Below, one piece after another: positions 21,541 to 62,623 of a stretch of 64,000 nucleotides of DNA; within the stretch, counting starts at the first letter, position 1, and each line of letters opens with the position of its first letter. The notes under the pieces were generated by a model, which made no database searches, had not been told where the DNA came from, and saw only the letters and a program-made list of their open reading frames with translations. The stretch covers positions 220-64,219 of the forward strand of contig JBKPSP010000027.1 of assembly GCA_046735175.1 (NCBI GenBank), in the 5' to 3' direction. Position numbers and translations under genes: made by a program. Origin of the DNA: Acidobacteriota bacterium. GTDB taxonomy: Bacteria > Acidobacteriota > Terriglobia > Terriglobales > Acidobacteriaceae.

Positions 21541-21661
21541 TCAGAATGCAGAATTCAGATTCAGAATTTAGATTTTAGATTTCAGATTTCAGATTGTGAC
21601 CAGTTGAGTGGGTTGCTGGCTTTAGATCTGCAATCAAAAATCTGAAATCAGAAATCTGCAG
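21541..21661. repeat. Heptamer-periodic inverted-repeat element (TCAGAAT/CAGATTT units)
   Basis: The left arm has 8 tandem heptamers (tcagaat gcagaat tcagatt cagaatt tagattt tagattt cagattt cagattg). The right arm, aatctgaaatcagaaatctgcag, is its imperfect complement. Confidence 0.85.
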
Positions 21662-21668
21662 TTGAAAT

Positions 21669-22637
21669 ATGGACAAGGTTCTAAACCAGCAGGAAATCGA
21701 CGCGCTTGTGCGCCAGGCACGCGGGGGCGCGACCGCGCGGACGGAAGCGCCGGTCGTTCGCTGGGACTATCGCCAGGCGGGGCGGCTCGGGCGCGAGCAG
21801 ATGGAAGCCATCAGCGGATTACACGAAGGGTTTGCGCGCAGCTTGACTCACTCGATGGGCGCCTATCTGCGTTTGAGTTTTAATGTCGCGCTGGTCTCCG
21901 CCGAGCACCTCAGTTACCGGGAGTTCGTCGGCAGCGTTCCGGAAGGGACCTATCTTTCCTCCTGCAAGCTGGCTCCTTTTGGCGCGCGTGGGCTGGTTCA
22001 ACTGGATATAGGAGTTTCCTTCGCCCTCATCGATGTTCTGCTGGGTGGTGAGGGATCCGCCCAGCCTCCGGTGAGAGAGGTCACGGAGATTGAAGACCAG
22101 GTACTTGAAACCGTGATGCGGATTATCTGCCGTGAACTGCAAGTTGCATGGAGTGCTCTGGGCCTGGAATTCCAATTTGAGCAGCGCCAGCACGCGGCCC
22201 AGGTACAGCACCTTCTCTCTCCGGACGAGCGCGTGCTATGCCTGAGCTTTGAAGTAACCATGAAGGATTGCCGGGGAACTATGAGCGTGATCGTGCCCGC
22301 GGTAATTTCCAGCGCGCTGCTGCGAAAAATTTCCGTAGCGCGGCCGAAGACCTACACCCAGCTTGGTTCGCCGGACTCGGCGCAACGTCTGATGGAGCGG
22401 CTGCTGGCATGCCGCTTCCGCATGCAACTGGGAATGGATGTGCGGACGTCCTCAGAGCAACTGGCAGGCATATCCAAGGGCATGGTGCTGACGTTCAGCC
22501 GGGACAGTGATGGGACTTGTGACCTGTTGGCCGGTACGCGCCCGGTCTTTAAGGCCCGGGTGGCGCGGCGAGGAAACAATCGAGCTGCTCAGATTCTTGG
22601 CGCGCTAGAAGGAAAGATGGAGCGGGGGGCCATATGA
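21669..22637 (+). CDS. fliM: Flagellar motor switch protein FliM
   Basis: N-terminal CheY-P-binding-type motif LNQQEIDALV, FliM middle-domain pattern and a C-terminal FliN-like segment. 322 aa. Confidence 0.88.
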   Translation: MDKVLNQQEIDALVRQARGGATARTEAPVVRWDYRQAGRLGREQMEAISGLHEGFARSLTHSMGAYLRLSFNVALVSAEHLSYREFVGSVPEGTYLSSCKLAPFGARGLVQLDIGVSFALIDVLLGGEGSAQPPVREVTEIEDQVLETVMRIICRELQVAWSALGLEFQFEQRQHAAQVQHLLSPDERVLCLSFEVTMKDCRGTMSVIVPAVISSALLRKISVARPKTYTQLGSPDSAQRLMERLLACRFRMQLGMDVRTSSEQLAGISKGMVLTFSRDSDGTCDLLAGTRPVFKARVARRGNNRAAQILGALEGKMERGAI

Positions 22638-23464
22638 CGGTAACGGACGATACGCAATCAATCGCTCGCGAGTTCATGCAGCTTTGGGCTACAAGCGCGT
22701 CCAACGCGATCGGCCAGATTGTGTCGGGAGCATTTCAAATAGAAGTTACCGAGGAGGCGCCTGCCGGACCGCTTGAAGCCGCAGAAACCGATATTTATCT
22801 GACAATCACTGTGGCGGGGAGTGCGCGCGGCGAGATGAGTTTCCGCCTGCCGGCGAATGTTGCTCTCAAAATGGCAAGAACGTTTTCCGGGGAGCCGAGC
22901 GCGGAGAACAAAGAGTTGACCGCCGACCATCGCTCGGCGCTGGATGAATTTTTCCGGCAGATCGCCGGACATGTCTCCACCGCGGCGAAGGAGAAATGGA
23001 ATGAACTCCCGATCACGGTTGCATCCGGCGAAGCGCCCACTTGGTCACCCGGCGCCAGCGGATGGCTCTGCTCTGCCGCTGGGACACCGTTCGCCATCGC
23101 AATGGAATGGCGGCTGAGTGCGGCACTCACGACTTCGTTGCAGGCATTCCGGCAAGCGTCTGCCTCGACCAGCCAGTCAATACGCCCGTCACCCGCAACG
23201 AACGAAAGCTCCGCGTCCAATTACGACCTGCTCATGAATGTCGACCTTGAACTAACGCTGCGGTTCGGGGAGCGCGAGATGCTCTTGAAGGACATTCTGG
23301 AACTGGGTGCGGGTGCGGTCATTGAGCTTGACCGCGAGGTGGAAGACCCTGCCGATCTCCTGCTGGACGGAAGATTGATTGCCCGCGGCGAGGTGGTCAT
23401 CGTAGACGGAAACTTTGGATTGCGAGTGACAGAGGTCGTCCCAGTTTCACAGACGCTGGCCTGA
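22634..23464 (+). CDS. fliN: Flagellar motor switch protein FliN (FliY-like long form)
   Basis: C-terminal SpoA/FliN domain (VDLELTLRFGEREMLLKDILELGAGAVIELDR...LLDGRLIARGEVVIVDGNFGLRVTEV). ATGA overlap with fliM. Confidence 0.85.
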   Translation: MTVTDDTQSIAREFMQLWATSASNAIGQIVSGAFQIEVTEEAPAGPLEAAETDIYLTITVAGSARGEMSFRLPANVALKMARTFSGEPSAENKELTADHRSALDEFFRQIAGHVSTAAKEKWNELPITVASGEAPTWSPGASGWLCSAAGTPFAIAMEWRLSAALTTSLQAFRQASASTSQSIRPSPATNESSASNYDLLMNVDLELTLRFGEREMLLKDILELGAGAVIELDREVEDPADLLLDGRLIARGEVVIVDGNFGLRVTEVVPVSQTLA

Positions 23465-23469
23465 ACCGC

Positions 23470-24315
23470 ATGGCAGTATCAACACAGCGACTTCGCGAGG
23501 CGGTACTGCACTGGGAAGCCCGCGTACTTGGATGCCAGGCACCGGATTGCTCCAGGCACCACCGGATCTGGAAGCGAATTTCGAGCCACTCACGGAGTAT
23601 TCGCGTACATGGCGTGCAGTATTGTTTTCCGCAGTGCTTTGAACGGGAGCTGCAACGGAAATGTGAAGCTCTGCAGTTATCGGAAGGGTTCGAAAGCCGC
23701 CGGGAGCGCCGCATTCCGCTGGGACTGCTGATGCTTTCGCGAGACGACGTGACACCTGCGCAGCTTCATGAAGCTCTCGCCGAACAGGGCCGCCGGAACG
23801 AGATGCGCATCGGCGAATGCATGCAGCGCCTCGGATTTGTTGGGCAGCAGCAGGTCACAGCCGCACTGGCAGCGCAATGGCGCTGCCCGGTCCTGCATAA
23901 GATGCCGCGGCAACTGCTGCACTGCGGCCTGCCCCACGGACTGCTGCTGGAATTCGAGATGTTGCCGGTGCATTTTGTATCAGCCACGCGAACTCTTCAC
24001 GTTGCGTTTGCCACGGAGATCGCATATGGCGCGCTGGTCGCGGTCGAGCAGATGCTGGATTGCAGGACGGAAGCCTGTCTGGTCACACCCGCGGCGTTCC
24101 AAGCTGGGATTGAGCGTTTGCAGCAAACCGCCGCCCCTTCGGAAAAACTCTTCGCCAATTCGCGCAGCCCCGCAGAAATTGCGCGAATCACGTCGAGCTA
24201 TGCTGCGAGGCTCGAGGCAGAGAACGTCAAGCTTGTCGCTTGTGGAGACTTGGCCTGGGTTAGAATCGACGGCGACCGCGAGCCGACGAATTTACTATTT
24301 CAGCGACCGTGTTGA
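23470..24315 (+). CDS. T2SSE_N (MshEN)-domain protein with an N-terminal Cys-rich zinc-finger-like segment
   Basis: PLGLLMLSRDDVTPAQLHEALAEQ and RIGECMQRLGFVGQQQVTAALAAQ resemble the tandem 24-residue MshEN motif. The downstream P...HV.FA pattern is typical of GspE N-terminal domains. The N-terminus has CQAPDC...YCFPQC. Confidence 0.7.
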   Translation: MAVSTQRLREAVLHWEARVLGCQAPDCSRHHRIWKRISSHSRSIRVHGVQYCFPQCFERELQRKCEALQLSEGFESRRERRIPLGLLMLSRDDVTPAQLHEALAEQGRRNEMRIGECMQRLGFVGQQQVTAALAAQWRCPVLHKMPRQLLHCGLPHGLLLEFEMLPVHFVSATRTLHVAFATEIAYGALVAVEQMLDCRTEACLVTPAAFQAGIERLQQTAAPSEKLFANSRSPAEIARITSSYAARLEAENVKLVACGDLAWVRIDGDREPTNLLFQRPC

Positions 24316-24365
24316 AAGGCGGAATTGGCATTTTGGCGCTTGGCCCGTATGGATGGATGCTCACC

Positions 24366-24632
24366 CTAAGTTTTAGAGCTCGGCCGCAACACAAGCTCTG
24401 ATCCCTGGGCTAGATAGCCCTTTCGGCGAAACCAATCCTGCATCGCGCTTTGCAGGCCGGCGAGCGGAACTCTTTCGCCAATCTCGACCACACCGTCAGC
24501 CACCGGGAGGGTATCGTCGAAAACGCTGGCATTGGTAAAACTGCGCATGGAAAAGCTATCAAGCCATTTCAATGGGCATGGAAGCCGCTCGCCTTCGTGT
24601 TCGTACTCCACGAGGATTTTGCGGGAAAACAT
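24366..24632 (-). CDS. Hypothetical protein
   Basis: 88-aa ORF from ATG 24632 (MFSRKILVEYEHEG...). The longer ORF start lies inside the heptamer repeat. No recognised domain. Confidence 0.35.
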   Translation of the reverse strand: MFSRKILVEYEHEGERLPCPLKWLDSFSMRSFTNASVFDDTLPVADGVVEIGERVPLAGLQSAMQDWFRRKGYLAQGSELVLRPSSKT

Positions 24633-24647
24633 GAGGGAAGAATAGCA

Positions 24648-24795
24648 GCACTCAGCATTCAGCACTCAGCATTCAGCATTCAGCCAGGGAAGAGGGCTGT
24701 AGATTCCAATAGGATTGCATGAATCGGTTCGATGAGTCATCGCGAATGCGTGGCTATTTGTTCGGGCTGAATGCTGAGTGCTGAATGCCGAGTAC
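24648..24795. repeat. Heptamer-periodic inverted-repeat element (GCATTCA/GCACTCA units)
   Basis: The left arm is gcactca gcattca gcactca gcattca gcattca gcc (24648-24685). The right arm, gctgaat gctgagt gctgaat gccgagt (24766-24793), is its complement. The spacer is about 80 nt. Confidence 0.9.
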
Positions 24796-24799
24796 TTTT

Positions 24800-25117
24800 C
24801 TACATCGCCGGCGATGGCGTGGCAGAGGCTGGAGCAGTTGTCTCGCCGTTGACTAGATCCTTGAGTTCTTTGCTCGGCTTGAAGAAAGGGATCTTCTTTG
24901 CCGGAACTTCAACGCGATCGCCAGTTTTCGGATTGCGGCCGACGCGGGGCTTACGTTGACGGGTACGGAAGCTGCCGAAACCGCGGATCTCGATTTTGTC
25001 GCCCGCCCGCAGCGAGCGCACGACGCTCTCAAAGATGGTTTCGACGATGACCTCGCTGTCTTTGCGGGTCAACTCCGCCAGCCGAGACACCTCGTCGATC
25101 AAGTCCGCCTTTGTCAT
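24800..25117 (-). CDS. ihfB: HU/IHF family DNA-binding protein, IHF-beta-like
   Basis: IEIRGFGSFRTR...GRNPKTGDRVEVPAKKIPFFKPSKELK matches the IHF/HU beta-arm signature. Confidence 0.85.
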   Translation of the reverse strand: MTKADLIDEVSRLAELTRKDSEVIVETIFESVVRSLRAGDKIEIRGFGSFRTRQRKPRVGRNPKTGDRVEVPAKKIPFFKPSKELKDLVNGETTAPASATPSPAM

Positions 25118-25239
25118 AGCTTCTCCCCAAGACAGCTTCTAGTGACTAGCTGCCCCCGGCGATGGCCAGCGCAGCAGCTTCTCCATAACATTCTCAAAAA
25201 TCGAGGTTTATGGCAAGAGCCGAGACGGCTTCTCCCCAT

Positions 25240-26157
25240 CTATCGCCACAAATAATAGAAGCCCATCTGCTCGTCCAGCAATTTCTCTTTCGTCGGGAGC
25301 CAGGGTGATACATCTCCCATCAGCAGGTCGAGCAAAGATTTCCGTTCGCGTTCGGGATGGACCAGCACCGGCTCGCCGCTTATGTGGACTGCTTTGGCTG
25401 TGTCCTCAACCGCGCTGCGGAAATCTCCGATCTGGTCCACGAGATGCATGCCCAAAGCCTGCTCGCCGGTCCAGACGCGACCATCCGCGATCGGCTTGAT
25501 GTCTGAGTCTTTTACATGCCGGCCGTCAGCAACGGCGTGGACGAACTGGCTGTACATGTTATCGATCAGGCCCTGCAAATACTGGCGTTCGGCCGGAGTC
25601 AGTTCGCGGCGCGGGTCGCCGGTGTCTTTGAATTCACCCACCTTGAGCACTTCAGGTTTCAGCTTCGCCCACTTCAAAAGATCGCCATAGTTCACCCATT
25701 CAGCGATCACGCCAATCGAACCCACCACACTGCCGCTGTCGGCGTAAATCTTATTGGTCGCTGACGAAACGTAATAAGCGCCGCTGGCGCCGACTGTCTC
25801 GATATCGGCCACGATGTGCTTGTGCTTTTCGTCGCGTATGCGCTTGACTTCGCGATAGATCTCTTCCGAGGCGGCCACTCCTCCGCCGGGCGAGTTCACG
25901 TGGATCAGGATGGCCTTGATCGAGTCGTCATCCGCAAACTTGCGCAACTGCTCGACTACATCACTGGGATCGAGAATGACGCCATCCAGGTCGACGACGC
26001 CGATTTTGTCGCCAAAGGCGTGGATCCCGGCCCGCTGGCCGCCTCCCGCATGCAGCGCTACGTAGACCAGGGTAAACACGGCCAGCACAAAGAGGAAGAA
26101 TGCTCCTCCCCCAATCAACACCCAGAGCCATACGCGCGAGCGACTGTTTTCACCCAT
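25240..26157 (-). CDS. sppA: Signal peptide peptidase SppA (36K type)
   Basis: N-terminal TM anchor and ClpP/crotonase-fold S49 motifs (INSPGGGV..., GASGAYY, GSIGV). Confidence 0.88.
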   Translation of the reverse strand: MGENSRSRVWLWVLIGGGAFFLFVLAVFTLVYVALHAGGGQRAGIHAFGDKIGVVDLDGVILDPSDVVEQLRKFADDDSIKAILIHVNSPGGGVAASEEIYREVKRIRDEKHKHIVADIETVGASGAYYVSSATNKIYADSGSVVGSIGVIAEWVNYGDLLKWAKLKPEVLKVGEFKDTGDPRRELTPAERQYLQGLIDNMYSQFVHAVADGRHVKDSDIKPIADGRVWTGEQALGMHLVDQIGDFRSAVEDTAKAVHISGEPVLVHPERERKSLLDLLMGDVSPWLPTKEKLLDEQMGFYYLWR

Positions 26158-26255
26158 AAATGGCTAGTAGTTTAGCACTTACGGGAGCCATGAGCAGCGA
26201 GCTTCGAGTGAACTGAGCGTTAGATCGCTCGCGGCTCACCGCTCAGTGCTTGTGG

Positions 26256-27110
26256 CTACGCGGGAGCGATGACCTTCAGCACCTTTGGCTCTACGCTGAA
26301 TTCCACCGGAGTCTGGCAGACGAACTCGCCATCGGCGTAAACGTCTAATGGATATTCCGTCTCGATGCGGAGTTTCTCCGCCTGCTCATACTGGACTTCT
26401 TCGAATCCCAGATGCCGGCCGAAGAACACCGTAGGAAAAAGGCAGAACAGCTTGAAGGTGTCCATGCTGCGGACCGTGCACAGGTCGAGCTTGCCGTCAT
26501 CGAGTTTCGCTTGCGGAGCGATCTTCATGCCGCCGCCGTAAGTTTGTGCGTTGGCGACTGCGGCCAACATCGTGGGTCGAAATGGCTGGCCTGCATTGCC
26601 ATTGTTTGAAATCTTCATGGGAAGAGGAGCGAAGCGAAAAAATTCACGAGTGGCGGTTAAAGCGTAACCGCCATGGCCGCGAATCCAACTGGGAAGTTCG
26701 TTGGCATGCTTGTTGATTTGGCTGTCGAGCCCGATTCCGGCCACGCAGCAGAAGTATCGGCTGCATTGCGCCGATGTTTCTGACCCCAAGCCTCTGATTA
26801 CCCCGAGGTCGATCGTGCGAAAGCCCGCCGCCTCTTCCGCGAACTTGCGCCACGCATCGATCGAGTCTTGCAGGTTTCGCAGGCCAAGAGCGCGAGCAAA
26901 ATCATTCCCGCTTCCGCAAGGCACGACCAGCAGCGGAACGTCTAAATCGAGCAATGTCGTAAGTTGATGGTGGATGGTACCGTCGCCGCCGAAGATGATG
27001 ATGGCTTCAGCCTGCTCGATCAGCGATGTCCATCGCACATTGGTGGCACGCTGGAATTCAAGGAAGTCTTTCGACACGTTCCCCGGCCCAAGAATCGCAG
27101 CAGCGCGCAT
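26256..27110 (-). CDS. Diacylglycerol kinase family lipid kinase (YegS/BmrU-like)
   Basis: GGDGTIHH and PCGSGNDFAR motifs of the DAGK catalytic domain. Confidence 0.85.
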   Translation of the reverse strand: MRAAAILGPGNVSKDFLEFQRATNVRWTSLIEQAEAIIIFGGDGTIHHQLTTLLDLDVPLLVVPCGSGNDFARALGLRNLQDSIDAWRKFAEEAAGFRTIDLGVIRGLGSETSAQCSRYFCCVAGIGLDSQINKHANELPSWIRGHGGYALTATREFFRFAPLPMKISNNGNAGQPFRPTMLAAVANAQTYGGGMKIAPQAKLDDGKLDLCTVRSMDTFKLFCLFPTVFFGRHLGFEEVQYEQAEKLRIETEYPLDVYADGEFVCQTPVEFSVEPKVLKVIAPA

Positions 27111-27257
27111 GCGCGGGTATTAGAGCACAGAGAGCAGCAGGGGAATAGGTGTTTCTTGATAATTGAGTGATCGTGTGTTCCAAATCGGAACGAAGTTAGC
27201 TGAATGCTTATTCAGGAGAACGCTTTCCCAGCTTAAGCGTACACCAAAATTAGAACG

Positions 27258-28496
27258 TCAATTTAGATGAACTCGTTTAACGCGCTTTCCAACCCGAACC
27301 AGGATCCCGCCATTCGAAGGAATGTTCACGATTGGAGTGCTCACGGCATTACCGTTGATCGTAACCGCTCCTTCCTGAATCTTGCGTTCTCCTTCGGTCC
27401 GGGACGACACCAAACCAGCTTCTTTCAGAAGCTTATCAACGCGGATCGCGTAGCTTCCGTTCTTTGACTCTGATCCAGCGGCCACCGCGGACTTATCGAT
27501 CGTGACCTCTTCTACACTCTCTGGCGCTTGGTTCTTCTGGAACTGCTTCGCCCAATCCTCTGCGGCTTTGGCTGCCGCTTCGGCGGAGTGAAAATCCTTA
27601 ACGATGCGCGCTGCCAAGTCTTTCTTCGCCTGCATCGGGTGCGCGTCCTTCTTCATGCGCTCGATCTCGGCCATCTGCACGTCAGTCAGCAGTTCGTAGT
27701 AGCGCCACATCATCTCGTCGGAAATGGACATCAGCTTGCCGTACATCTCCAGTGGCGCTTCCTTGATTCCTATGGCGTTGCCGTACGACTTGGACATCTT
27801 CTGCACACCGTCCAAGCCTTCGAGGATGGGCATCGTCAAAATGACCTGAGATTCCTGCCCATGAGCGCGCTGCAGTTCGCGGCCCATCAGCAGGTTGAAC
27901 TTCTGGTCTGTGCCGCCGAGTTCAACGTCTGCCTTGAGCATCACCGAGTCGTATCCTTGTGAGATCGGATAGAGCAACTCGTGAAGGGCGATCGGTTTTT
28001 CTTCCTGGAAGCGCTTGTGAAAATCCTCGCGCTCGAGCATCTGCGAAACGGTGAATTTGGCCGCGAGCTTAATCCAGTCTGAAGACTTCAATTTGTCAAA
28101 CCACTCGCTGTTGAAGCGAACTTCGGTGGTCCGCGGCGAGAGGATTTTGTAAACCTGCTCCATGTAGGTCTTGGCGTTCTTCATCAATTCTTCGGCGCTG
28201 AGAGGCGGGCGAGTCGCCGAGCGTCCTGTGGGATCGCCGATCATGCCGGTGAAATCGCCGATCAGAAAAATGACGGTGTGGCCAAGGTCCTGAAAGTGCT
28301 TCAGCTTGCGCAACAGCACGGTGTGACCGAGGTGCAGGTCGGGTGCAGTGGGATCGAAGCCGGCTTTGACGCGCAGCGGTTTGCCTGCCGCGAGGGACTT
28401 CTCAAGCTTCTCGCGCAGTTCTGACTCCTTCACAACCTCGGCGGAGCCTTTTTTTATGTATGTCAGTTGTTCATCAACGGGGGCGAAAGTTGGCAT
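27258..28496 (-). CDS. tyrS: Tyrosine--tRNA ligase
   Basis: HIGH-type motif (DLHLGH), KMSKS motif (KMSKSYGN) and a C-terminal S4-like domain. Confidence 0.95.
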
Positions 28497-28513
28497 TGTT
28501 CAAGCATTATAAG

Positions 28514-28626
28514 GAATGCAGAAGGCAGAAGTCAGAATTCAGAAGTAAACCGGCCTGCCCATTTGACCGGAAGATGATTCCGCACTGGGTCTTACTTCTG
28601 CATTCTGACTTCTGCCTTCTGACTTC
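28514..28626. repeat. Heptamer-periodic inverted-repeat element (GAAGGCA/GAAGTCA units)
   Basis: The left arm is gaatgca gaaggca gaagtca gaattca gaagtaa (28514-28548). The right arm is ttacttc tgcattc tgacttc tgccttc tgacttc (28592-28626). The right arm overlaps the 3' end of purN. Confidence 0.9.
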
Positions 28627-29221
28627 GTAACAATCGGCGACCCACGATGGTGAATTCGCCCGCAAGAACCAAGTTGATGGCCTCGCTGTATGCAATGTGC
28701 TCCTGCTCCAGAATCCGCGCTGCAAGCGTGTGTTCATCATCAGAATCGAGAACTGGGACGGATTTTTGCAGGATGATGGCCCCGTGATCCAGTTCCTCAT
28801 CGACGAAGTGGACCGTGCAGCCCGCGACCTTCACTCCGTACGCAAACGCCTGCTCCTGCGCCTCGAGTCCCGGGAATGCCGGCAACAAAGAAGGATGGAT
28901 ATTCAGAATCCGTTGCGGGAATTGCTTTACAAACCATGGCGAGAGCAGGCGCATGTAGCCGGCGAGGCAAACAATATCGACCTTGTGCTGCTGCAAAGCT
29001 GCGACGACTTCCCTATCGTGGTCTTCACGGGCCTTGCCTTTCGAGGGTATGACCAGAGCCTCAAGGCCGAGTTGTCGCGCAGTCTCGATCCCGCCTGCGT
29101 CGGTCCTGTTGGAGATCACCACCGCAATGCGTGCGTCCGGGATTTTTCCAGCCGCGACGTTTTTGGCAATCGCCTCGAAGTTAGATCCGCGCCCGGAGAG
29201 AAGAATGCCGATGTTTTTCAT
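28592..29221 (-). CDS. purN: Phosphoribosylglycinamide formyltransferase
   Basis: MKNIGILLSGRGSN..., NIHPSLLP and the C-terminal PurN pattern. The last ~10 codons (QKAEVRMQK*) are encoded by the repeat arm. Confidence 0.93.
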   Translation of the reverse strand: MKNIGILLSGRGSNFEAIAKNVAAGKIPDARIAVVISNRTDAGGIETARQLGLEALVIPSKGKAREDHDREVVAALQQHKVDIVCLAGYMRLLSPWFVKQFPQRILNIHPSLLPAFPGLEAQEQAFAYGVKVAGCTVHFVDEELDHGAIILQKSVPVLDSDDEHTLAARILEQEHIAYSEAINLVLAGEFTIVGRRLLRSQKAEVRMQK

Positions 29222-29375
29222 CGCAGGCCCACGCAGCCATCTTTGTGATCTTGTCTACTCATCGCGATAAAACGCTAAATGCTGGTGTGAATGTCCGTCA
29301 ATTGGGCCCCCGTGCACCGCCGGAGGGTGCGAACTTTGCGTGAACCGTTTACAGTGGCTGAGGCATCTTCCACCC

Positions 29376-30098
29376 ATGATTTCACGAGCACTGCAGGCCT
29401 TTGTGATTTGCGCATGCGCTATTCAACTTGCTGCGCAGCAGGGTACCGCCTCGCTGCCCGAATCTCCGGGGCAAACGTCACAGGCAGAGAAGGACCAGTC
29501 GGGCAGAATGCTCGGCATTCCGCAGTTCGGCGTGACAAACGAGAAGCATCCGGCGCCGATGAGCGCGGGACAGAAGTTCCGCCTTTTCTACCGTACGGCT
29601 GTCGATCCAGCGGAGTTCGTCGTCATCGGTTTCGAGGCGGGCATCAACCAGGCAAGTAATTCCTTCCCCGGCTACGGACAAGGCGCTGCCGGATACGGCA
29701 AGCGTTATGGTGCCGCATTCGCCGACCAGTTGTCGGCTGAGTTCTTTAGCAACTTCGCCTATCCGGTACTGCTTAAGCAGGACCCACGCTACTTCCGAAT
29801 GGGCGATGGCCCGGTCAAGCAGCGATTTTTTTATGCGCTTGCTCAGGAATTCGTCGGACACAAAGATGGAGGACGAAAAACCTTCAACTGGCCGACCACT
29901 TTGGGGGCTTTAACGGCGGGAGGCATTTCTAACGCTTACTATCCGGAAGACGACCGCGGTTTTGGACTGACCGTGAGCCGCGCGGCCATATCAATGCTCT
30001 ATGGAAGTTTGAGTGGAGTGGGCAATGAATTCTGGCCCGATATCTCGCGAAAACTGCACCGCAAGAAATCAGTGCCGGGCGATCAATCCCAGAAATAG
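29376..30098 (+). CDS. Hypothetical secreted protein
   Basis: Signal peptide MISRALQAFVICACAIQLAAQQ. No domain recognised by eye. Confidence 0.6.
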   Translation: MISRALQAFVICACAIQLAAQQGTASLPESPGQTSQAEKDQSGRMLGIPQFGVTNEKHPAPMSAGQKFRLFYRTAVDPAEFVVIGFEAGINQASNSFPGYGQGAAGYGKRYGAAFADQLSAEFFSNFAYPVLLKQDPRYFRMGDGPVKQRFFYALAQEFVGHKDGGRKTFNWPTTLGALTAGGISNAYYPEDDRGFGLTVSRAAISMLYGSLSGVGNEFWPDISRKLHRKKSVPGDQSQK

Positions 30099-30272
30099 CA
30101 GAACGGAAAGCAGAAGCGCCGCCCAGGCGTTGGCGCGCACGAATTTGTGCGTCGCCGGCCAGGGGAACATTAGGACGTCGAAGACCGCGATCAACCGCTC
30201 CGGCCACAAGAGGCCGGCCATTCCGAAGGCAAGAGACAACTGCACAACCAGAGACAAAACCAGATGGTTCAT
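30069..30272 (-). CDS. Hypothetical small membrane protein (2 TM)
   Basis: 67-aa hydrophobic ORF from ATG 30272. Its 3' end overlaps the convergent gene by 30 nt. Weak support. Confidence 0.35.
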   Translation of the reverse strand: MNHLVLSLVVQLSLAFGMAGLLWPERLIAVFDVLMFPWPATHKFVRANAWAALLLSVLLFLGLIARH

Positions 30273-30377
30273 CCCAACGCTCCAACGCAAGATTTCAGGA
30301 CGGAAAACCGTTAGTAGAAGTCTAGCGTGAGTACGTGAGGGCGAGTCAACGAAAAAACGCGGGTTTGCAAACTTAGG

Positions 30378-30737
30378 TCAGTCTTCCTTCTTGGACGTGC
30401 CGGCCAGCCAGCGGAAGAACATATTCACCAGGCTGAGGAAGATGGCTCCCCAGAAGGAGGAGAAGAACGAGTCAACGCTGAAAGCGGGGCGCAGCAGGGC
30501 CGACGCCAGCTCCAGCATGAGGGCGTTGATGACTAGCCAGAAAATTCCCAGCGTGAGAACGGTGAGAGGAAAGGTAATGACTTTTAGAATCGCGCCAAGA
30601 GTTGCATTGATAAAGCCGATAACAATGGCTGCTACGAGCGCCGCAGCCAGTCCGCGCACGTGAATACCCAGCGGCAGCTGCGCGACCACCCATACCGCGA
30701 GCGCGCTCAGGATCCAGTTGATGAGGATGCGAGTCAT
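30378..30737 (-). CDS. Phage_holin_4_2 (YvlD-like) family membrane protein
   Basis: 119 aa, four TM helices. The pattern ...VIGFINATLGAILKVITFPLTVLTLGIFWLVINALML... is typical of this family. Confidence 0.75.
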   Translation of the reverse strand: MTRILINWILSALAVWVVAQLPLGIHVRGLAAALVAAIVIGFINATLGAILKVITFPLTVLTLGIFWLVINALMLELASALLRPAFSVDSFFSSFWGAIFLSLVNMFFRWLAGTSKKED

Positions 30738-30819
30738 CTTGCTCTGAGCTAAAGAATATAGTTACTGGACGGCATACACGCAAACTGCCTCAGCAAACCC
30801 GCGCAACCACGAACGCGGT

Positions 30820-30972
30820 GTCATCCCAGCGAAGCAGTAATTGAGCGCCGCGAAAACGCTGCGCAGTCGAGGGACCCTGTGTTTTTGGTCTCGTCCCTGC
30901 TTCTTACGGCCGTAAACACAAGGTCTCTCGACTACGCGGCTCGCGTAGGCGAGCCCCTTCGCTCGAGATGAC
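30820..30972. repeat. About 150-nt nested inverted-repeat element (GTCATC...CGAAG termini)
   Basis: Outer arms: gtcatcccagcgaagc / ccttcgctcgagatgac. Inner arms: cagtcgagggaccctgtgttt / aaacacaaggtctctcgactac. It accounts for the spurious 95-aa ORF 30762-31049. Confidence 0.75.
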
Positions 30973-30992
30973 ATCGCCTGTAGGGATTTACG

Positions 30993-31016
30993 TCTGACGC
31001 CTGAAGCCTGACGCCT
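30993..31016. repeat. Short heptamer array (CCTGACG/CCTGAAG x3)
   Basis: tctgacg cctgaag cctgacg cct, 25 nt upstream of the E1-beta start. Confidence 0.6.
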
Positions 31017-31040
31017 TATCGTAGTAAACTTTTTCCGGTC

Positions 31041-32015
31041 ATGGCACAACTTACATATCTGGAGGCCATCCGCCAGGGCATCTGGGAAGAGATGGAGCGC
31101 GATCCGGCCGTCTTCTGCATTGGCGAGGACATCGGTATCTACGGCGGAGCTTTCAAAATTACCGACGGATTCATTGATACCTTCGGCCCCGAACGCGTGA
31201 TCGATACTCCGATCGCGGAATCGGCAATTGTGGGCGCGGCTTTCGGCGCGTCACTAACGGGAATGCGCCCTGTTGCCGAATTTCAGTTCATGGATTTCAT
31301 CAGCTGCGCCATGAATCAGATCAGCAACATGGTGGCGAAGACGCATTATCTGTGGGGAGCACCTGCGCCGTTAGTCCTGCGCGGGCCGAGCGGCGGTGGG
31401 GTGCACGGCGGCCCATTCCACTCTCAGAATCCTGAGATGTGGTTCGTGCACAATCCCGGACTGAAGGTGGTTTGTCCGGCGACACCGTACGACGCCAAGG
31501 GGCTAATCAAGTCTGCTATCCGCGACAACAATCCGGTGGTGTTTTTCGAGCACAAGTATCTCTATCGCCGGATTAAAGAGGATGTGCCAGCGGATGATTA
31601 CGTGGTTCCTCTCGGCAAGGCGCGGATTGCCCGCGAGGGCCGCGACATTAGCATCATTACTTATGCCGCGATGGTCCACCTGGCGCTCGAAGCCGCAGAA
31701 TTGTTGGCGAAAGAGGGAATAGAACTCGAGATTGTCGATTTACGTACCTTGGCGCCGCTTGATCGCGAGGCGATTGCCGATACCGTTCGCAAGACCAACA
31801 AGGTCATCCTTCTTCACGAAGACACAAGGACCGGAGGCATCGCAGGCGAGATTGCCGCCATCATCAATGAGGAAGCATTCGACGACCTCGACGGTCCGAT
31901 CGTGCGAATTACGGCACTCGACAGCGCCGTGCCGTTTTCGCCGCCGCAGGAAGAGCACTTTCTGCCCCAGTTGAAAGATGTGGTCGAGAAAGCGCGTTGG
32001 CTGAAGTCGTATTGA
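31041..32015 (+). CDS. 2-oxoacid (pyruvate/branched-chain) dehydrogenase E1 component beta subunit
   Basis: 324 aa. The pattern ...GEDIG.YGGAFK.T.G...FG..RV.DTPI.E... is a transketolase-like Pyr/C-terminal domain pattern. Confidence 0.9.
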   Translation: MAQLTYLEAIRQGIWEEMERDPAVFCIGEDIGIYGGAFKITDGFIDTFGPERVIDTPIAESAIVGAAFGASLTGMRPVAEFQFMDFISCAMNQISNMVAKTHYLWGAPAPLVLRGPSGGGVHGGPFHSQNPEMWFVHNPGLKVVCPATPYDAKGLIKSAIRDNNPVVFFEHKYLYRRIKEDVPADDYVVPLGKARIAREGRDISIITYAAMVHLALEAAELLAKEGIELEIVDLRTLAPLDREAIADTVRKTNKVILLHEDTRTGGIAGEIAAIINEEAFDDLDGPIVRITALDSAVPFSPPQEEHFLPQLKDVVEKARWLKSY

Positions 32016-32023
32016 AATCCGAT

Positions 32024-32118: not shown

Positions 32119-32140
32119 GTTCGATCTTGAGGAGATTCCC

Positions 32141-32713: not shown

Positions 32714-32737
32714 GCATGCCCGCTTCCCAAAAAGCTC

Positions 32738-32831
32738 TTAACCGCAGGGGCGCAGAGAAGGCCCGCCGAGGGCGCAGGAGGGAGTCTTTCTCTGCGAACT
32801 TTGCGCTTTTCTTTGCGATCTCTGCGGTTAA
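32738..32831. repeat. TTAACCGCAGAG-type inverted-repeat element
   Basis: ttaaccgcaggggcgcagagaagg ... ctttgcgatctctgcggttaa, directly after the cytochrome c stop. Related copies lie at 49207-49246 and 57737-57854. Confidence 0.85.
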
Positions 32832-44911: not shown

Positions 44912-44914
44912 AAA

Positions 44915-45064
44915 GCCATCAGCCGTCAGCCATCAGCCGTCAGGAAAACCAGTTCCTGGGTTTTGGCTCTTAGCTGACCAGCCAAGGTTCACGCTAAAGG
45001 CTAACAGCTAGGAGCTAAAAGCTAAAAGTTTTACCTGATGGCTGACGGCTGATGGCCGATGGCT
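44915..45064. repeat. Triple heptamer-array element in a divergent promoter region
   Basis: The left arm is gccatca gccgtca gccatca gccgtca (44915-44942). The central array is gctaaag gctaaca gctagga gctaaaa gctaaaa (44993-45027). The right arm, cctgatg gctgacg gctgatg gccgatg (45034-45061), is complementary to the left arm. Confidence 0.9.
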
Positions 45065-47236: not shown

Positions 47237-49132
47237 TTGAGTATCCGGCCGAAACCAGCTCCCGCGCTTACTGAAGCCGAACAGCGACTTCGCACCATTG
47301 TCTCCAAAGCCCCGGTCATTTTGTTTGCCGCCGACCAGAACGGCACGGTGACGCTTTGCGAGGGCAAGGCACTGCAAAAGCTCGGCAAAGTTCCTGGCCA
47401 GTCCGTCGGGCAATCCCTGCTCGAGATGTATGGAAAATACCCGGCTCTGATCACGAGCATTCGCCGCGCTCTCCGCGGTGAAGAGTTCTTGAGTGTTGAG
47501 GAACTTCCCGAGCTTGGTCTGTGCTTCGAAACCCACTGGGTGCCGCAGCATTCTGAGGATGGCGAGCTGGCCGGCACTATCGCTGTAGCGGTGGATGTGA
47601 GCGAGCGCAGCCGTAACGAGCGCGCGAGGGAGGAGGCCGAAACTCTTTATCGCAGCCTGGTGGAGCAACTCTCGGCCGTCACCTACATCGCGGAGCTGGG
47701 AGTTGAGGGCGAGTGGCTGTTTGTCAGCCCTCAGATTGAATCGCTCCTGGGATACACGGCGCAGGAATGGCGCGCCAACGCCGCCAACTGGATCGAGAAC
47801 GTGCATCCGGAAGACCGCGAAATTGTTCTGGCGGCAGAGGATGCAACCCTGCAAGGGAAATCTTTCCGGGCGGAGTATCGGATGTTCCGCCGTGACGGCA
47901 AACTTATTTGGATCAACGATAGCGGCTCGCTGGTGCCGGGGCCGAATGGCCGGTCATTGCTGCACGGTGTTCTCCTCGAAGTAACTGAGCAAAAGCAATT
48001 GCAGGTGCATCTCTCGCACAGCCAACGCATGGAAGCTGTGGGACAGCTGGCGTCCGGCGTCGCGCACGACTTCAACAATCTGTTGACGATTATCAAGGGC
48101 TACAGCAGCCTGCTGATGGAGCGGGATCTGGATGAGACTGACGCACACGCGGCGCGAGAGATCCAACAGGCTGCGGAGCGCGCGGCTGCGCTGACTCACC
48201 AGCTTTTGGCATTCAGCCGCAAGCAGACCCTGCAGCCGCGAGTGCTGGACTTGAACAAGATTGTTCACGGCCTAGAAATGATGCTCCGCCGCGTACTCAC
48301 CGAGAACGTGGAGTTGCGCATCCAAACGGCGGCAGATTTGGGACTGGTGAAAGCCGATCCGGTGCAGATGGAACAGGTCCTGATCAACCTGGTGGTGAAC
48401 GCTCGAGACGCCATGCCCAAGGGAGGTACGCTAACCATTGCCACTGCGCCCCGTCAAGTATTGCAGCACTCGGGTGAGGGCGAATCGTTGATGCGCGCAG
48501 GTTCGTACGTGAGTCTGACCGTATCGGATACCGGCATAGGAATGGATTCGGCGACGCGGACCCGGATATTCGAACCCTTTTTCACCACGAAAGAGGTTGG
48601 CAAGGGAACCGGATTGGGCCTCGCAACCGTATATGGCATTGTCAAGCAGAGCAACGGCCATATCGAGGTCGAAAGCGAACCCGGGAAAGGCGCCGCTTTC
48701 CGCATATCATTGCCCAGAGTTGAACAGGAAGTGACCGCACCACGGAAGCCCCCAATGACCGAGCCCAAACACGGAACTGGAACAATTCTGTTGGCCGAGG
48801 ACGAACCGCTTTTGCGAGAGCTGGGCCAAACCATTCTTACCCAGGCGGGTTATAAGATCCTGACCGCACCCAATGCCGACGCGCTTGAGACGTTCGTCGC
48901 CGAGCACGAAGGCAAAATCGATTTACTGCTGACTGACGTCGTCATGCCGGGCATGAGCGGGCCGGAACTGGTGAAACTGGTGCGCGCGCGCTGGCCCGAG
49001 GTGCGGGTTCTGTATATGTCCGGGTACGCGGACGACGAAATTGAGGATCTGGATCGCGATGCCGGATTTTTGCAAAAGCCCTTTACGCCAACCGAACTGA
49101 CCGAGAAGATTGCGGAGATGCTGGCGAGGTAG
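47237..49132 (+). CDS. Hybrid sensor histidine kinase/response regulator (PAS-PAS-HisKA-HATPase-REC)
   Basis: H-box VGQLASGVAHDFNNLL, N/G boxes (NLVVNARDAM; DTGIGM; GTGLGLA) and a C-terminal receiver (ILLAEDE...DLLLTDVVMPGMSG). TTG start, uncertain. Confidence 0.88.
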   Translation: MSIRPKPAPALTEAEQRLRTIVSKAPVILFAADQNGTVTLCEGKALQKLGKVPGQSVGQSLLEMYGKYPALITSIRRALRGEEFLSVEELPELGLCFETHWVPQHSEDGELAGTIAVAVDVSERSRNERAREEAETLYRSLVEQLSAVTYIAELGVEGEWLFVSPQIESLLGYTAQEWRANAANWIENVHPEDREIVLAAEDATLQGKSFRAEYRMFRRDGKLIWINDSGSLVPGPNGRSLLHGVLLEVTEQKQLQVHLSHSQRMEAVGQLASGVAHDFNNLLTIIKGYSSLLMERDLDETDAHAAREIQQAAERAAALTHQLLAFSRKQTLQPRVLDLNKIVHGLEMMLRRVLTENVELRIQTAADLGLVKADPVQMEQVLINLVVNARDAMPKGGTLTIATAPRQVLQHSGEGESLMRAGSYVSLTVSDTGIGMDSATRTRIFEPFFTTKEVGKGTGLGLATVYGIVKQSNGHIEVESEPGKGAAFRISLPRVEQEVTAPRKPPMTEPKHGTGTILLAEDEPLLRELGQTILTQAGYKILTAPNADALETFVAEHEGKIDLLLTDVVMPGMSGPELVKLVRARWPEVRVLYMSGYADDEIEDLDRDAGFLQKPFTPTELTEKIAEMLAR

Positions 49133-49136
49133 AAGC

Positions 49137-49206
49137 GGCTCTTGGCTCTTGGCTCTTGGCTCTTGGCTCTTGGCTCTTGGCTCTTGGCTCTTGGCTCTTG
49201 GCTCTT
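49137..49206. repeat. Perfect tandem repeat (GGCTCTT) x10
   Basis: Counted base by base: ten uninterrupted copies of ggctctt, starting 5 nt after the kinase stop codon. Confidence 0.97.
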
Positions 49207-49246
49207 GGCGTTCTCCGCGGCCTTTCTCTGCGATCTCTGCGGTTAA
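49207..49246. repeat. Half TTAACCGCAGAG-type element fused to the heptamer array
   Basis: ggcgttctccgcggcctttctctgcgatctctgcggttaa matches the right arm of the 32738-32831 element. Confidence 0.75.
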
Positions 49247-49294
49247 AAGCTTTTGCAATAAGCCGCAGGTGAGTCTGTGCTACAGTCCTCTTTG

Positions 49295-49947: not shown

Positions 49948-49994
49948 GGCCCGGCATAGTACCACAATCCGAGCGTGGCTTGAGGTCTCGAAGC

Positions 49995-52955: not shown

Positions 52956-53146
52956 AGGGACGCAACAAATCCCAGTCTTCAACGGACTTTCATCCCAAAC
53001 TCGCACGGGCGAGAGAGGAACCTCACGACGCGCGTGGATTAGCACGGACATGAGTGGGATTGTGGATTACACATGCGCCTGGAATCTGGCGTAGCTCGCA
53101 AGCTGACGTTAGGTTCCCTCCCTTTATGAAGCCTGGATTGTAAGCC

Positions 53147-54178: not shown

Positions 54179-54417
54179 AGGCGAAACTTAGTTTATCTAA
54201 TACAGCAAACAGCTCATCTGGGCTAAAATGGTTTGCTCATGTCACGCCTTCTCCAGTGGAGCGTTCTTCCTAGCGGACTCTGATCCGCGTCGCGCGAAGT
54301 CCTGTTCGCGAGTATTATTCCTGTTCACATAGAATTCAGCGGCTTAAGCCGCGGACCATCTGTATGAATTTTGCGGCACGTCTGAAGACGTGCCCTGATA
54401 CGAATCAACGGCGTAAA

Positions 54418-54452
54418 GCTGACAGCTGAGAGCTGACAGCCAGGAGCTAGAA
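54418..54452. repeat. Heptamer array (GCTGACA/GCTGAGA x5) abutting a start codon
   Basis: gctgaca gctgaga gctgaca gccagga gctagaa ends 4 nt before ATG 54457. The AGGAG within unit 4 can act as the SD. Confidence 0.85.
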
Positions 54453-54456
54453 GGCA

Positions 54457-56040: not shown

Positions 56041-56141
56041 TTCCTCTGTGTGACTCTGTGATCAGAAAAAGAACGAACAGTTCCCGATAGAAGCTTTAAC
56101 CACAGAGGACAGAGAGGTACACAGAGGAAAAGCCACAGAGA
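56041..56141. repeat. TTAACCACAGAGG-type inverted-repeat element between the two CrtI-family paralogues
   Basis: The left arm is ttcctctgtgtgactctgtga. The right arm is ttaaccacagaggacagagaggtacacagaggaaaagccacagagaagc. Confidence 0.85.
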
Positions 56142-56146
56142 AGCAA

Positions 56147-57736: not shown

Positions 57737-57854
57737 GCTTCTCTGCGGCCTCGTTGGTTTTCCCTGCGTACTCTGCGGTTAAGAGCTTTTCGGCAGCTAA
57801 GAGATCTTAACCGCAGAGGTCGCCGAGAAAAATCGCGGAGATCGCCGAGAAAAC
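57737..57854. repeat. TTAACCGCAGAG-type inverted-repeat element
   Basis: ...ctctgcggttaagagct ... agatcttaaccgcagaggtcgccgagaaaaatcgcggagatcgccgagaaaa begins at the base after the stop codon. Confidence 0.85.
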
Positions 57855-57902
57855 TCTTATCCAAGCCGATTGGTCGGGTACCATCGCATTTACCGAACCT
57901 AC

Positions 57903-58760: not shown

Positions 58761-58844
58761 TTTAGAACCGGGGTCCTTCGGATCCAGGGTTCCCGCCCTG
58801 GAATAGAAGTATTGAGATTGCTTACCCGGGCGCATGAATCTATC

Positions 58845-59708: not shown

Positions 59709-59734
59709 CTGTAGGAATTCGGTAGGATAAACAG

Positions 59735-60265
59735 ATGAAGAACCAAAATGGCGTTCTGCCCAGATTGGTCCAAATACTGGTGGACGAGTGGGGGTACGAC
59801 AGAGTAGCGCAAGAACTCTCTCGTGTTAACCGATTCTCGGATATTTCTTTGCCCTCACGCCGTTCAAGAAATGGTTCGGCGAAACGCAGGCTCAATCCAA
59901 CGGAGCAAGTACAGAAGATGCCACTCGAGTCGGGCCGACGAGAGGCGCTACTGCGACTCGCGAAGCGATATGAAGAGCGACAATTTTTGCCAAATGTCGC
60001 GGCAGTCAGAGAATTTTTGTCGATGGCGGGTTACGATCCAGGTCCGATGAAGGATCGGGATCAAGCGTTTCGAACCCTACTCTTAACGCTTCTTCAACTT
60101 CCAACTGAGCGGCTCAACCAGCTGACGCACTCTTCCCTGCACTCAGGTCCTTCGCAGCTCGGCCCAATATCTGACGCAATTGCAGCGGCGGGAGAACAGA
60201 TGCCGAGGCGGGCCCATCCATCCGACACGTCCTCGAACTCCGAACATGAGGTGCAAAAGTTTTGA
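59735..60265 (+). CDS. Hypothetical 176-aa protein, candidate ParA partner
   Basis: It starts 26 nt after the ParA-like gene and has the same AT-richer composition. It has a basic stretch (SRRSRNGSAKRR) and a Ser/Pro-rich C-terminus. No domain recognised. Confidence 0.55.
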   Translation: MKNQNGVLPRLVQILVDEWGYDRVAQELSRVNRFSDISLPSRRSRNGSAKRRLNPTEQVQKMPLESGRREALLRLAKRYEERQFLPNVAAVREFLSMAGYDPGPMKDRDQAFRTLLLTLLQLPTERLNQLTHSSLHSGPSQLGPISDAIAAAGEQMPRRAHPSDTSSNSEHEVQKF

Positions 60266-60351
60266 CAGGTTTTCCTTACCAAGGTAACTACCTCGTAATC
60301 CCTCCCCTCTGGCAGTATTAATTTGGAACCGGTTTCATCGAGGGAAAACTA

Positions 60352-61854: not shown

Positions 61855-61901
61855 GTCTCGCTGACGTAGAGCCGTCAATCAGAACCCCATAGGAACACGG
61901 C

Positions 61902-62531
61902 ATGCCTCGTGCTAGTACCCTGAGCGAAATCATCGACATGTTGTGGGACCACCCCGAAAATGCGGAGTGGACTCCAAAACTTAAAGATATTCCTGGGCCG
62001 CTTTTTCGCGAATGGATGGCCAGCCGCGATATAGAGATCCTCGGGTTTGTATATTCGACGCTTGGCAACCAAAAATTTCGTGTTGAGCCGGAACTCTCAC
62101 TCGATGAGTACCTCAAATTCGTAAGGAACTACTACGAGCGGTGCTTCTTTGAGAATCCCGATGGCGAGTGGTCGGACAGCAGATACTCAGCAGGCTGGGA
62201 TCTGGTGAATGTGCTGGCATTCCAGTGGGATAGTTCGCAAGTGCCGCGGTCGGTCATGGAAGATTGGAAGAACTGGCTCGCTGAGAACTACAGACGCGGC
62301 TCAGAAGAGGTCCGGACCTGCATAATTAGTGCTACCCTCGAACATTTGTTCGAGAGGGGAACCATGCGCAAGTTCTTTGCCGATTGGGTGAAGGATCCAG
62401 TCCTAAGAACGGCTTACGAACATGCTCTACTTTGGTATGCGGGAGGCGGAAGGACACCACTTGGCAAGAGCACTGCTGTTCAGCCCCGCGTTCGATCTCA
62501 GCTGGAAAAGAGCCGTCTTTGCAAGAAATAG
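61902..62531 (+). CDS. Hypothetical 209-aa Trp-rich protein
   Basis: Uninterrupted ORF with no signal peptide and no domain recognised. Confidence 0.5.
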   Translation: MPRASTLSEIIDMLWDHPENAEWTPKLKDIPGPLFREWMASRDIEILGFVYSTLGNQKFRVEPELSLDEYLKFVRNYYERCFFENPDGEWSDSRYSAGWDLVNVLAFQWDSSQVPRSVMEDWKNWLAENYRRGSEEVRTCIISATLEHLFERGTMRKFFADWVKDPVLRTAYEHALLWYAGGGRTPLGKSTAVQPRVRSQLEKSRLCKK

Positions 62532-62552
62532 ATTATCTACCCCGATCAAATA

Positions 62553-62572
62553 GGCGGGCGAGGACGCCCGCC
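62553..62572. terminator. GC-rich hairpin between convergent genes
   Basis: ggcgggcg-agga-cgcccgcc, an 8-bp perfect stem. No clear U-tract. Confidence 0.5.
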
Positions 62573-62588
62573 GCACACAGTCAGTTTT

Positions 62589-62623
62589 ACTGACGGCTGA
62601 CGGCTGATAGCTGACAGCTAATT
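62589..62623. repeat. Heptamer array (GCTGACG/GCTGATA/GCTGACA x5) overlapping the RNase E/G stop codon
   Basis: actgacg gctgacg gctgata gctgaca gctaatt. The stop codon (cta on the plus strand, 62618-62620) lies in the last unit. Confidence 0.8.

Follow-up and report, generated by a model that had tools for sequence, protein, structure and literature searches.

The 64,000-nucleotide stretch of DNA analysed here (the window) belongs to contig JBKPSP010000027.1 of an uncultured soil-dwelling Terriglobales member of the Acidobacteriota, and at eight of its gene junctions it carries tandem arrays of 7-nucleotide (nt) units, which at four of them form the arms of a hairpin. These loci very probably represent CTGA-core heptanucleotide arrays and hairpins, and with them an acidobacterial case of a class of repeats that is known from many phyla and has found no explanation. 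What is new here is the acidobacterial member of a partly described class, not a new kind of element. Based on a crude open reading frame (ORF) call, 89.4% of the window is coding and 10.6% non-coding, and according to Pfam the genes beside the arrays have ordinary housekeeping functions. In the left part of the window these are a sigma-54/sigma-70 domain gene, fliM and fliN; the genes for HU, an S49 peptidase and a YegS-like kinase; and tyrS and purN. They are followed in the right part by genes for a holin-family protein and the E1-beta subunit of a 2-oxoacid dehydrogenase, for an Fe-S assembly protein and a hybrid histidine kinase, and for a CrtI-family oxidoreductase and RNase E/G. The features are listed below with the intervals given by Tandem Repeats Finder (TRF).

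21541–21596, no strand assigned: distal arm of hairpin 1 (from TRF, sequence and inverted-repeat alignment), about eight units TCAGAAT/TCAGATT/TTAGATT, beginning 6 nt past the upstream stop at 21535; TRF 21541–21595.
21626–21661, plus strand: proximal arm of hairpin 1, units of the AATCTGA/AATCTGC type, CTGA-forward, ending 8 nt before the fliM ATG (21669); TRF 21626–21658.
24646–24686, minus strand: proximal arm of hairpin 2, GCTGAAT/GCTGAGT in 5.6 copies on the minus strand, followed by TGCTATTCT and then the ATG (24633) of a small conserved ORF (88 amino acids (aa) in the sister species L001), the gap being 12 nt; TRF 24646–24684.
24764–24796, minus strand: distal arm of hairpin 2, its end 4 nt away from the HU stop codon (HU gene at 24800–25117, minus strand); TRF 24766–24788.
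28506–28511, minus strand: −10 box TATAAT of tyrS, 12 nt upstream of the ATG (codon 28494–28496, first base 28496).
28514–28548, minus strand: proximal arm of hairpin 3, CTTCTGA ATTCTGA CTTCTGC CTTCTGC on the minus strand, ending 17 nt ahead of tyrS; TRF 28514–28545.
28590–28626, minus strand: distal arm of hairpin 3, overlapping the last codons and the stop of purN (28592–29221, minus strand).
30990–31016, plus strand: single array, CCTGACG/CCTGAAG in 3.9 copies, CTGA-forward, 24 nt upstream of the E1-beta ATG (31041); without inverted partner.
44914–44948, minus strand: left arm of hairpin 5, CTGACGG/CTGATGG on the minus strand, ending 2–3 nt before a 236-aa gene (start codon 44911); TRF 44914–44943.
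44993–45028, no strand assigned: central array of hairpin 5 (TRF), GCTAAAG/GCTAACA/GCTAGGA/GCTAAAA, pairing with 44958–44985 (GGCTCTTAGCTGACCAGCC) as a nested inner palindrome.
45030–45064, plus strand: right arm of hairpin 5, CTGATGG/CTGACGG, 30 nt ahead of the ATG (45095) with which the Fe-S assembly protein gene starts; TRF 45035–45064.
49137–49209, no strand assigned: single array (TRF) of GGCTCTT in 10.4 perfect copies, beginning 4 nt past the stop of the hybrid histidine kinase gene; without CTGA core and without partner.
54417–54452, plus strand: single array, GCTGACA/GCTGAGA and then degenerate units, CTGA-forward, ending 4 nt before the ATG (54457) of the CrtI-family oxidoreductase gene; no inverted partner; TRF 54417–54440.
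62589–62623, plus strand: single array at a convergent junction, CTGACGG/CTGATAG/CTGACAG, overlapping the RNase E/G stop codon (62618, minus strand); no inverted partner; TRF 62590–62619.

A preliminary description of this DNA, made from its letters, had claimed period-7 arrays at eight loci, and TRF recovers each of them. Besides the window, the assessment of enrichment covered about 650 kb of relatives and about 860 kb of pattern matches. Within the window, our own period scan detected 13 period-7 arrays at a score of at least 8, whereas 100 shuffles, each permuted inside 200-nt blocks, gave 0.92 on average and 4 at most. If the threshold is raised to a score of at least 10, seven arrays remain at period 7, while none occurs at periods 4–6, 8–11, 13 and 15, one at period 12 and three at period 14, which is twice 7. 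Ten of the 13 arrays are wholly non-coding (p = 4e-8) and nine contain a CTGA/TCAG core, which would be expected in 5.5% of random heptamers (p = 3e-9). The arrays can therefore be regarded, as first proposed, as one intergenic family with a GCTGANN/NCAG-like core. However, such a core is not shared by every locus, since the GGCTCTT array at 49137 lacks it, and the intergenic location holds for most arrays but not for the arm 28590–28626, which runs into the 3′ end of purN. The arms are found in contigs of independent runs from soil and rhizosphere (X5, X6 and X9), which cover them, and we consequently rejected the possibility, raised at the outset, that the arrays are assembly artefacts. At the perfect (GGCTCTT)n array 49137–49209, short-read contigs end at the array edges.

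Between the window loci the three non-core positions of the unit vary, while CTGA stays constant. The unit words thus differ from locus to locus, yet identical arms are abundant in metagenomes: soil DNA and RNA data contain arms identical to 24646–24686 at numerous further loci, where loops and flanks are different, and contig depth at this arm type reaches 222–297 versus about 5. GGCTCTT, in turn, is also present in the inner arm of hairpin 5. The heptamer units are drawn from a small shared vocabulary. The earlier suggestion that each locus grew its own unit locally, instead of being copied, consequently holds only in part, as words are shared and identical arms exist elsewhere.

The arrays are placed against genes in a regular manner, which agrees with the positions next to stop codons, next to start codons and in a divergent promoter region that had been noted before. 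On the sense strand, the order at hairpin loci is stop codon, (NNNTCAG)n arm, loop, (CTGANNN)n arm and, 2–30 nt further on, start codon. Distal arms adjoin or overlap the stops at 21535, 24800 and 28592, and the CTGA-forward arm ends 2–30 nt before a start codon at seven of eight loci, single CTGA-forward runs being present where the partner arm is lacking. The sole CTGA array of the window without a start codon downstream is the one at 62589. In all four window hairpins the TCAG arm lies 5′ and the CTGA arm 3′, an order that is identical on either strand. At five of seven loci every frame of the forward arm contains TGA or another stop, whereas the opposite orientation is largely open, which explains how purN can extend into its arm.

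Some of the neighbouring sequences deserve mention in their own right. The gene upstream of fliM that ends at 21535 (20672–21535) encodes, according to Pfam, sigma-54-activator and sigma-70 region 4 domains, the sigma-54 interaction domain being truncated (profile positions 1–73 of 168). Both domains in one protein are an odd combination for a flagellar regulator. Upstream of the E1-beta array lies an unrelated imperfect inverted repeat (30858–30940, 27-nt arms, GCTGCGCAGTCGAGGGACC...), which is conserved in L001. A further repeat family, which has the words CTCTGCG/CGCAGAG (TRF periods 21–22), is unrelated and occupies 49210–49260, 32787–32826 and 57812–57853, so that one copy directly follows the (GGCTCTT)n array. 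Finally, inside the hybrid histidine kinase gene, metagenome contig depth rises at 47940–48106 to 56–361, compared to about 4 in the flanks; this stretch is either a very conserved part of a domain or another dispersed repeat.

To place the core and the arm order in a wider frame, a (CTGAN3)x5 pattern was scanned over 185,579 species genomes. Among the matches listed are Acidobacteriota, Cyanobacteria, Chloroflexota, Planctomycetota, Verrucomicrobiota, Bacteroidota and Gemmatimonadota, as well as Parabeggiatoa and others. The GCTGAAT/GCTGAGT vocabulary is found near-identical in a Verrucomicrobiia genome (L034), and that of TCAGCCG/TCAGCCA in the cyanobacterium Okeania (L066). If the arm order is counted over the window, its relatives and these matches, outward pairs (TCAG...CTGA) exceed inward ones by 40:6 based on chains of cores (p ~1e-6; 37 of the 40 outward and all six inward pairs come from the pattern matches) and by 37:7 based on a generic inverted-repeat search (p ~1e-6). 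In viral contigs the ratio is 91:29. Across phyla, an ATG is about twice as common downstream of the arrays as on the control side, and a −10-like motif downstream of them is weakly enriched. As a control core in viral contigs, CGTA gave 58 stretches versus at least 115 for CTGA; GACT was discarded as a control, as it overlaps CTGACT units. Heptamer hairpins without CTGA exist in other phyla as well (GGGGACT, GGGACAC, GGAAGAA and TTAGGAG units at L059:5995–6145, L060:2019–2173, L119:5575–6149 and L127:760–866). Their purine-rich arm seems to come first, a hint that the polarity rule may be a more general one.

As closest analogue of the arrays, the STRR sequences of heterocystous cyanobacteria had been named. 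These reportedly consist of tandem intergenic 7-nt units (STRR1–3: CCCCAGT, TTGGTCA and CAACAGT) at many loci (Mazel et al. 1990). They share with the window arrays the tandem 7-nt intergenic design, the many loci per genome and the lack of an assigned function. However, their units differ from those of the window, they belong to another phylum than Terriglobales, and they are defined neither by hairpin pairs nor by a position at start codons. Two other systems are closer, and both share the CTGA core; STRR sequences must be considered more distant. First, TAACTGA direct repeats have been described from marine Beggiatoaceae, some Cyanobacteria and Bacteroidetes, where they lie a few nt ahead of start codons and show 7-nt indels between strains (MacGregor 2015, PMC4679880). 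They comprise two to six or more tandem copies, are intergenic, are distributed patchily across phyla and have no assigned function, and the BOGUAY genome contains one indirect TAACTGA repeat only (PMC4679880). The window arrays resemble them in their tandem CTGA-core 7-nt units, in the intergenic, forward-oriented position within few nt of start codons and in 7-nt indels. They differ in that the window holds five single TAACTGA words and no tandem ones, in that the non-core positions vary by locus, in that half of the window loci are inverted pairs, and in their acidobacterial host. Second, Geobacter metallireducens possesses eight sites with inverted pairs of five tandem MTYCTGA heptanucleotides, termed 'class 3 global regulator binding sites' (Aklujkar 2009, PMC2700814). 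These pairs lie inside operons at variable distance, for example between proB and proA, and were read as sites of a global regulator, with binding of IHF/HU hypothesised (PMC2700814). Here the likeness lies in tandem CTGA-core heptamers that are paired on opposite strands at variable distance (34–88 nt spacers in the window). In the tyrS arm, CTTCTGAATTCTGA at 28532–28545 on the minus strand (CTTCTGA ATTCTGA) matches MTYCTGA exactly twice. In contrast, Geobacter uses one consensus word at its eight sites, whereas the window uses several. More generally, heptanucleotides are the dominant class of long simple-sequence repeats, and slippage of the polymerase was put forward as their cause (Mrazek 2007, as summarised in PMC4679880). 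Our literature search found no description of such repeats in Acidobacteria, of the arm order or of a link to the PF05635 family discussed below.

The four hairpins announced in the preliminary description are borne out by inverted-repeat alignment. Hairpin 1 pairs 21570–21596 with 21631–21657 (23 of 27 positions, spacer 34 nt, RNA fold z = −2.8), hairpin 2 pairs 24647–24677 with 24766–24796 (29 of 31, spacer 88 nt, z = −10.9), hairpin 3 pairs 28519–28548 with 28592–28621 (29 of 30, spacer 43 nt, z = −7.5) and hairpin 5 pairs 44914–44948 with 45030–45064 (30 of 35, spacer 81 nt, z = −11.8 on the plus and −9.3 on the minus strand). No inverted partner accompanies the arrays at 30990, 49137, 54417 and 62589. 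At 8 of 13 loci the own partner arm is the best match of an arm (p = 2e-4), and thus the arms co-vary within a locus. Such co-variation, together with the very stable folds (z = −7.5 to −11.8), would fit functional RNA hairpins that, in polycistronic or read-through RNA, act between cistrons as RNase III processing sites, 3′-end stabilisers or terminators. The arrays are indeed transcribed: metatranscriptome contigs with the 24646 arm type are very abundant, and one 151-nt RNA record (X21) runs with 0 mismatches from the HU gene's 3′ end through the distal arm to 24727. By analogy, the RNA explanation may be modelled on the stems of 23S rRNA intervening sequences, which in Leptospira and Coxiella carry an S23p/PF05635 ORF, since in at least 25 relatives of the window the arms bracket a gene of this 23S_rRNA_IVP family. 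The ORF in the loop of a long inverted repeat is, however, shared by the relatives only; the window hairpin is empty, and the element lies in the purN-tyrS spacer and not in 23S rRNA. Furthermore, of the mismatches over 66 hairpins, read on the sense strand as inferred, 28 are G·U, 32 are A·C and 73 are of other kinds, so that G·U is not above A·C and most mismatches are of the transversion type. Since there is no excess of G·U, selection on an RNA helix is disfavoured. A stem would require neither a 7-nt period nor a fixed CTGA polarity, four of the eight loci are single arrays unable to pair, Rfam gave no match at gathering score in the 64-kb window and a terminator scan marked no intrinsic terminators at the hairpins. 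We therefore hold functional RNA hairpins to be an unlikely explanation. The pattern of mismatches argues for an arm symmetry that would be kept in DNA, either by palindromic origin or by templated correction.

How the arrays behave over time can be followed in relatives. An exact look-up of the window's tyrosyl-tRNA synthetase (TyrRS, encoded at 27258–28496) gave no record; its best named relatives are Terriglobales and Acidobacteria metagenome-assembled genomes, and a sister species with a 93%-identical TyrRS (L001) was found in many soil metagenomes. The sister-species loci L001–L006 are syntenic with the window. L001 possesses arrays at three of four orthologous junctions (fliM, HU and E1-beta) with changed copy numbers and unit variants, for example at L001:16876–16968, the counterpart of the fliM array with a different copy number. 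Between purN and tyrS it carries instead a lipocalin gene (L001:9426–9929) and degenerate units only. The orthologous site of the E1-beta array is occupied in L001 and empty in L007. Among 80 TyrRS-related metagenome loci, period 7 leads with 2.3 arrays per 100 kb, compared to 10.9 in the window. Many of these roughly 80 relatives keep a heptamer run directly upstream of a TATAAT-like box of tyrS, and its word is lineage-specific (TTCTGAC/TTCTGCA, AATCTGA/AATCTGC or CAATTCG-like). Thus, the same junction retains the element while unit sequence and copy number turn over. Within populations the arrays seem stable: those of L001–L004 are identical, and one X5 contig over 44685–44983 shows a 7-nt gap, most likely in the left arm of hairpin 5. 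In addition, X5 and X6 both have an additional T at 21559 that makes a unit 7 nt long again. One might speculate that the arrays are phase-variable contingency loci in which a change of copy number switches the neighbouring genes. A 7-nt period would shift the frame and alter promoter spacing, one 7-nt variant occurs in X5, and the perfect 10.4 copies of GGCTCTT suggest recent expansion. Nevertheless, the neighbours are housekeeping genes (tyrS, HU, fliM and E1-beta), four metagenome assemblies of the sister species have the same arrays, and units added upstream would leave the nearest unit at the same distance from the −10 box. Consequently, we consider phase variation highly improbable.

The tyrS junction provides the clearest connection between an array and a promoter. 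The word CTGACT (28535–28530, minus strand) inside the proximal arm of hairpin 3 lies at the −35 position, and CTGACT-18-TATAAT, with 10 of 12 matches, is the best and the only strong sigma-70-like site that the promoter scan detected in 21000–31500. In essentially all of the roughly 80 relatives (L129–L208), a TATAAT (or TGCAATAAT) box lies 7–13 nt before the tyrS ATG. Because of this short distance, the sequence implies a tyrS mRNA that would be leaderless or near-leaderless. A Shine-Dalgarno-like core is present in 22 of the 62 crude gene calls of the window. An array unit at the −35 position is in line with arrays of protein-binding sites, in which each heptad would bind one subunit of a cooperative protein that controls the adjacent promoter or start codon. 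Models for this are the heptad operators of the omega repressor and tandem MetJ boxes or, for RNA, HutP and TRAP on spaced NAG triplets. The conserved CTGA core next to three variable positions, the fixed arm order and the forward-facing position just upstream of start codons, which is found here and in Beggiatoaceae (PMC4679880), agree with such a reader, and the MTYCTGA pairs have been interpreted accordingly as global-regulator sites by Aklujkar et al. (PMC2700814). However, no candidate protein was found, the neighbouring genes are functionally unrelated, and arrays also stand after stop codons and in the convergent junction at 62589. Moreover, their spread over phyla and viral contigs would demand a near-universal reader. 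Binding-site arrays are thus a rather improbable explanation.

The purN-tyrS spacer is remarkable for its content, too. In 25 of the 80 relatives' loci, and in addition in L008 and L209–L214, it harbours a PF05635 gene (115–160 aa) whose product is annotated as four helix bundle protein of the 23S_rRNA_IVP family (PF05635 is carried by P0121). PF05635 also includes the Avd proteins of diversity-generating retroelements. At most loci with both flanks readable (e.g., L008, with the gene at 9559–9957, L138, L143, L157, L158 and L185), heptamer arms flank the gene, which occurs between them in either orientation (L143, L157). It is decayed in L196, L171 and L192, and in L201 the arms persist beside a remnant of its 5′ end. 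The window loop has inner ends (GTAAGACC ... GGTTTAC) that match those flanking the gene in L158 and L185, and because of this match the window hairpin 28514–28626 may represent the empty form of a PF05635 cassette. The spacer is consequently a variable slot in Terriglobales, occupied by a PF05635 gene that is sometimes a pseudogene, by a lipocalin-like gene or, as in the window, by the hairpin alone. A hidden Markov model search over about 1.5 Mb of loci did not find the PF05635 gene in the window, in the relatives' other flanks or in 120 array-bearing loci of other phyla. All its close homologues lie at the purN-tyrS site, and we therefore rejected the gene as a general partner of the arrays. 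Given this confinement, it is probably inherited vertically.

Such cargo invites a comparison with small mobile palindromic elements of the MITE or REPIN type. In this case, reiterated recombinase-binding sites would make up the heptamer runs, which would represent terminal inverted repeats, and the empty hairpins would be deletion derivatives of cargo-bearing copies. REP and REPIN elements, which are mobilised by RAYT transposases, are likewise short hairpin-forming intergenic repeats in fixed orientation at gene junctions. However, they are near-identical copies of one 20–40-nt palindrome, whereas the window arms consist of tandem heptamers with locus-specific words. The fixed polarity of an asymmetric word toward the interior is a property of terminal inverted repeats, and the same arms with different loops and flanks at many loci, the arms and gene remnant of L201, the IVP gene in either orientation and the arrays in viral contigs are all consistent with mobility. 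Yet this gene is confined to one site in about 1.5 Mb of loci and probably inherited vertically there, neither a transposase nor target-site duplications were seen, each window locus has its own mixture of units, and array units run in phase into local promoter sequence. Mobile elements are accordingly a quite improbable source of the family.

Taken together, we favour an explanation that combines the CTGA-core class with DNA-level palindromic simple-sequence elements, and we assign to this whole a probability of about 0.5. Our confidence in the mechanism, that is in 7-nt slippage with arms homogenised by templated repair at the DNA level, is low. According to it, arrays would be born and resized in 7-nt steps via replication slippage, and the two arms would be kept alike by templated repair within the palindrome and not by selection on an RNA helix. 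The element would be long-lived at one junction, with unit sequence and copy number turning over. It would be tolerated only at gene junctions, and only one polarity, with the TCAG arm first, would be tolerated or produced there, possibly because the upstream reading frame can run into the element in this order. The exit arm would then offer a TGA in every frame as well as outward-facing, −35-like CTGAC words. Effects on expression are probably secondary: a long hairpin in read-through RNA may mark a transcript boundary, and at tyrS one array unit may act as −35 box for a promoter whose leader is very short.

Several observations weigh against this explanation. The arrays of L001–L004 do not differ, and the X5 contig provides the only 7-nt length variant within populations. 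The sense strand in the G·U test was assigned by a crude ORF caller, and no transcript ends were mapped from the metatranscriptomes, which consist of sparse assembled contigs. A consensus promoter was found by the promoter scan at one promoter-proximal arm only, that of tyrS, and at none of the other proximal arms. Above all, it is not obvious how neutral slippage would make one CTGA core and one arm order recur in different phyla and in viral contigs. For this last reason, the explanations by a protein reader and by mobile elements keep some weight.

The recurrence of core and arm order across phyla and viruses points to a putative sequence-specific reader or maker. One might go further and speculate that NNN-CTGA hairpins are a single cross-phylum class of oriented junction elements that a putative machinery shared by bacteria and viruses writes, maintains or reads, although we judge this to be improbable. 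Such machinery could be a heptad-counting nucleic-acid-binding protein or a recombinase, with the PF05635 protein as occasional cargo or partner. If so, the elements would not be slippage debris but portable modules for promoters, stops and processing. Among long simple-sequence repeats, those of heptanucleotides are the most common in many bacterial genomes, and they lack an accepted origin or function. The acidobacterial case displays unusually clear rules, namely the core, the arm order, the placement from stop to start, the persistence at a junction with replacement of the word, and the purN-tyrS slot, and therefore yields testable predictions on the reader or maker of such repeats. The arrays matter for metagenome assembly as well, because contigs break there. 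In practice, they may be of use in annotating gene starts, promoters and transcript boundaries in soil Acidobacteriota.

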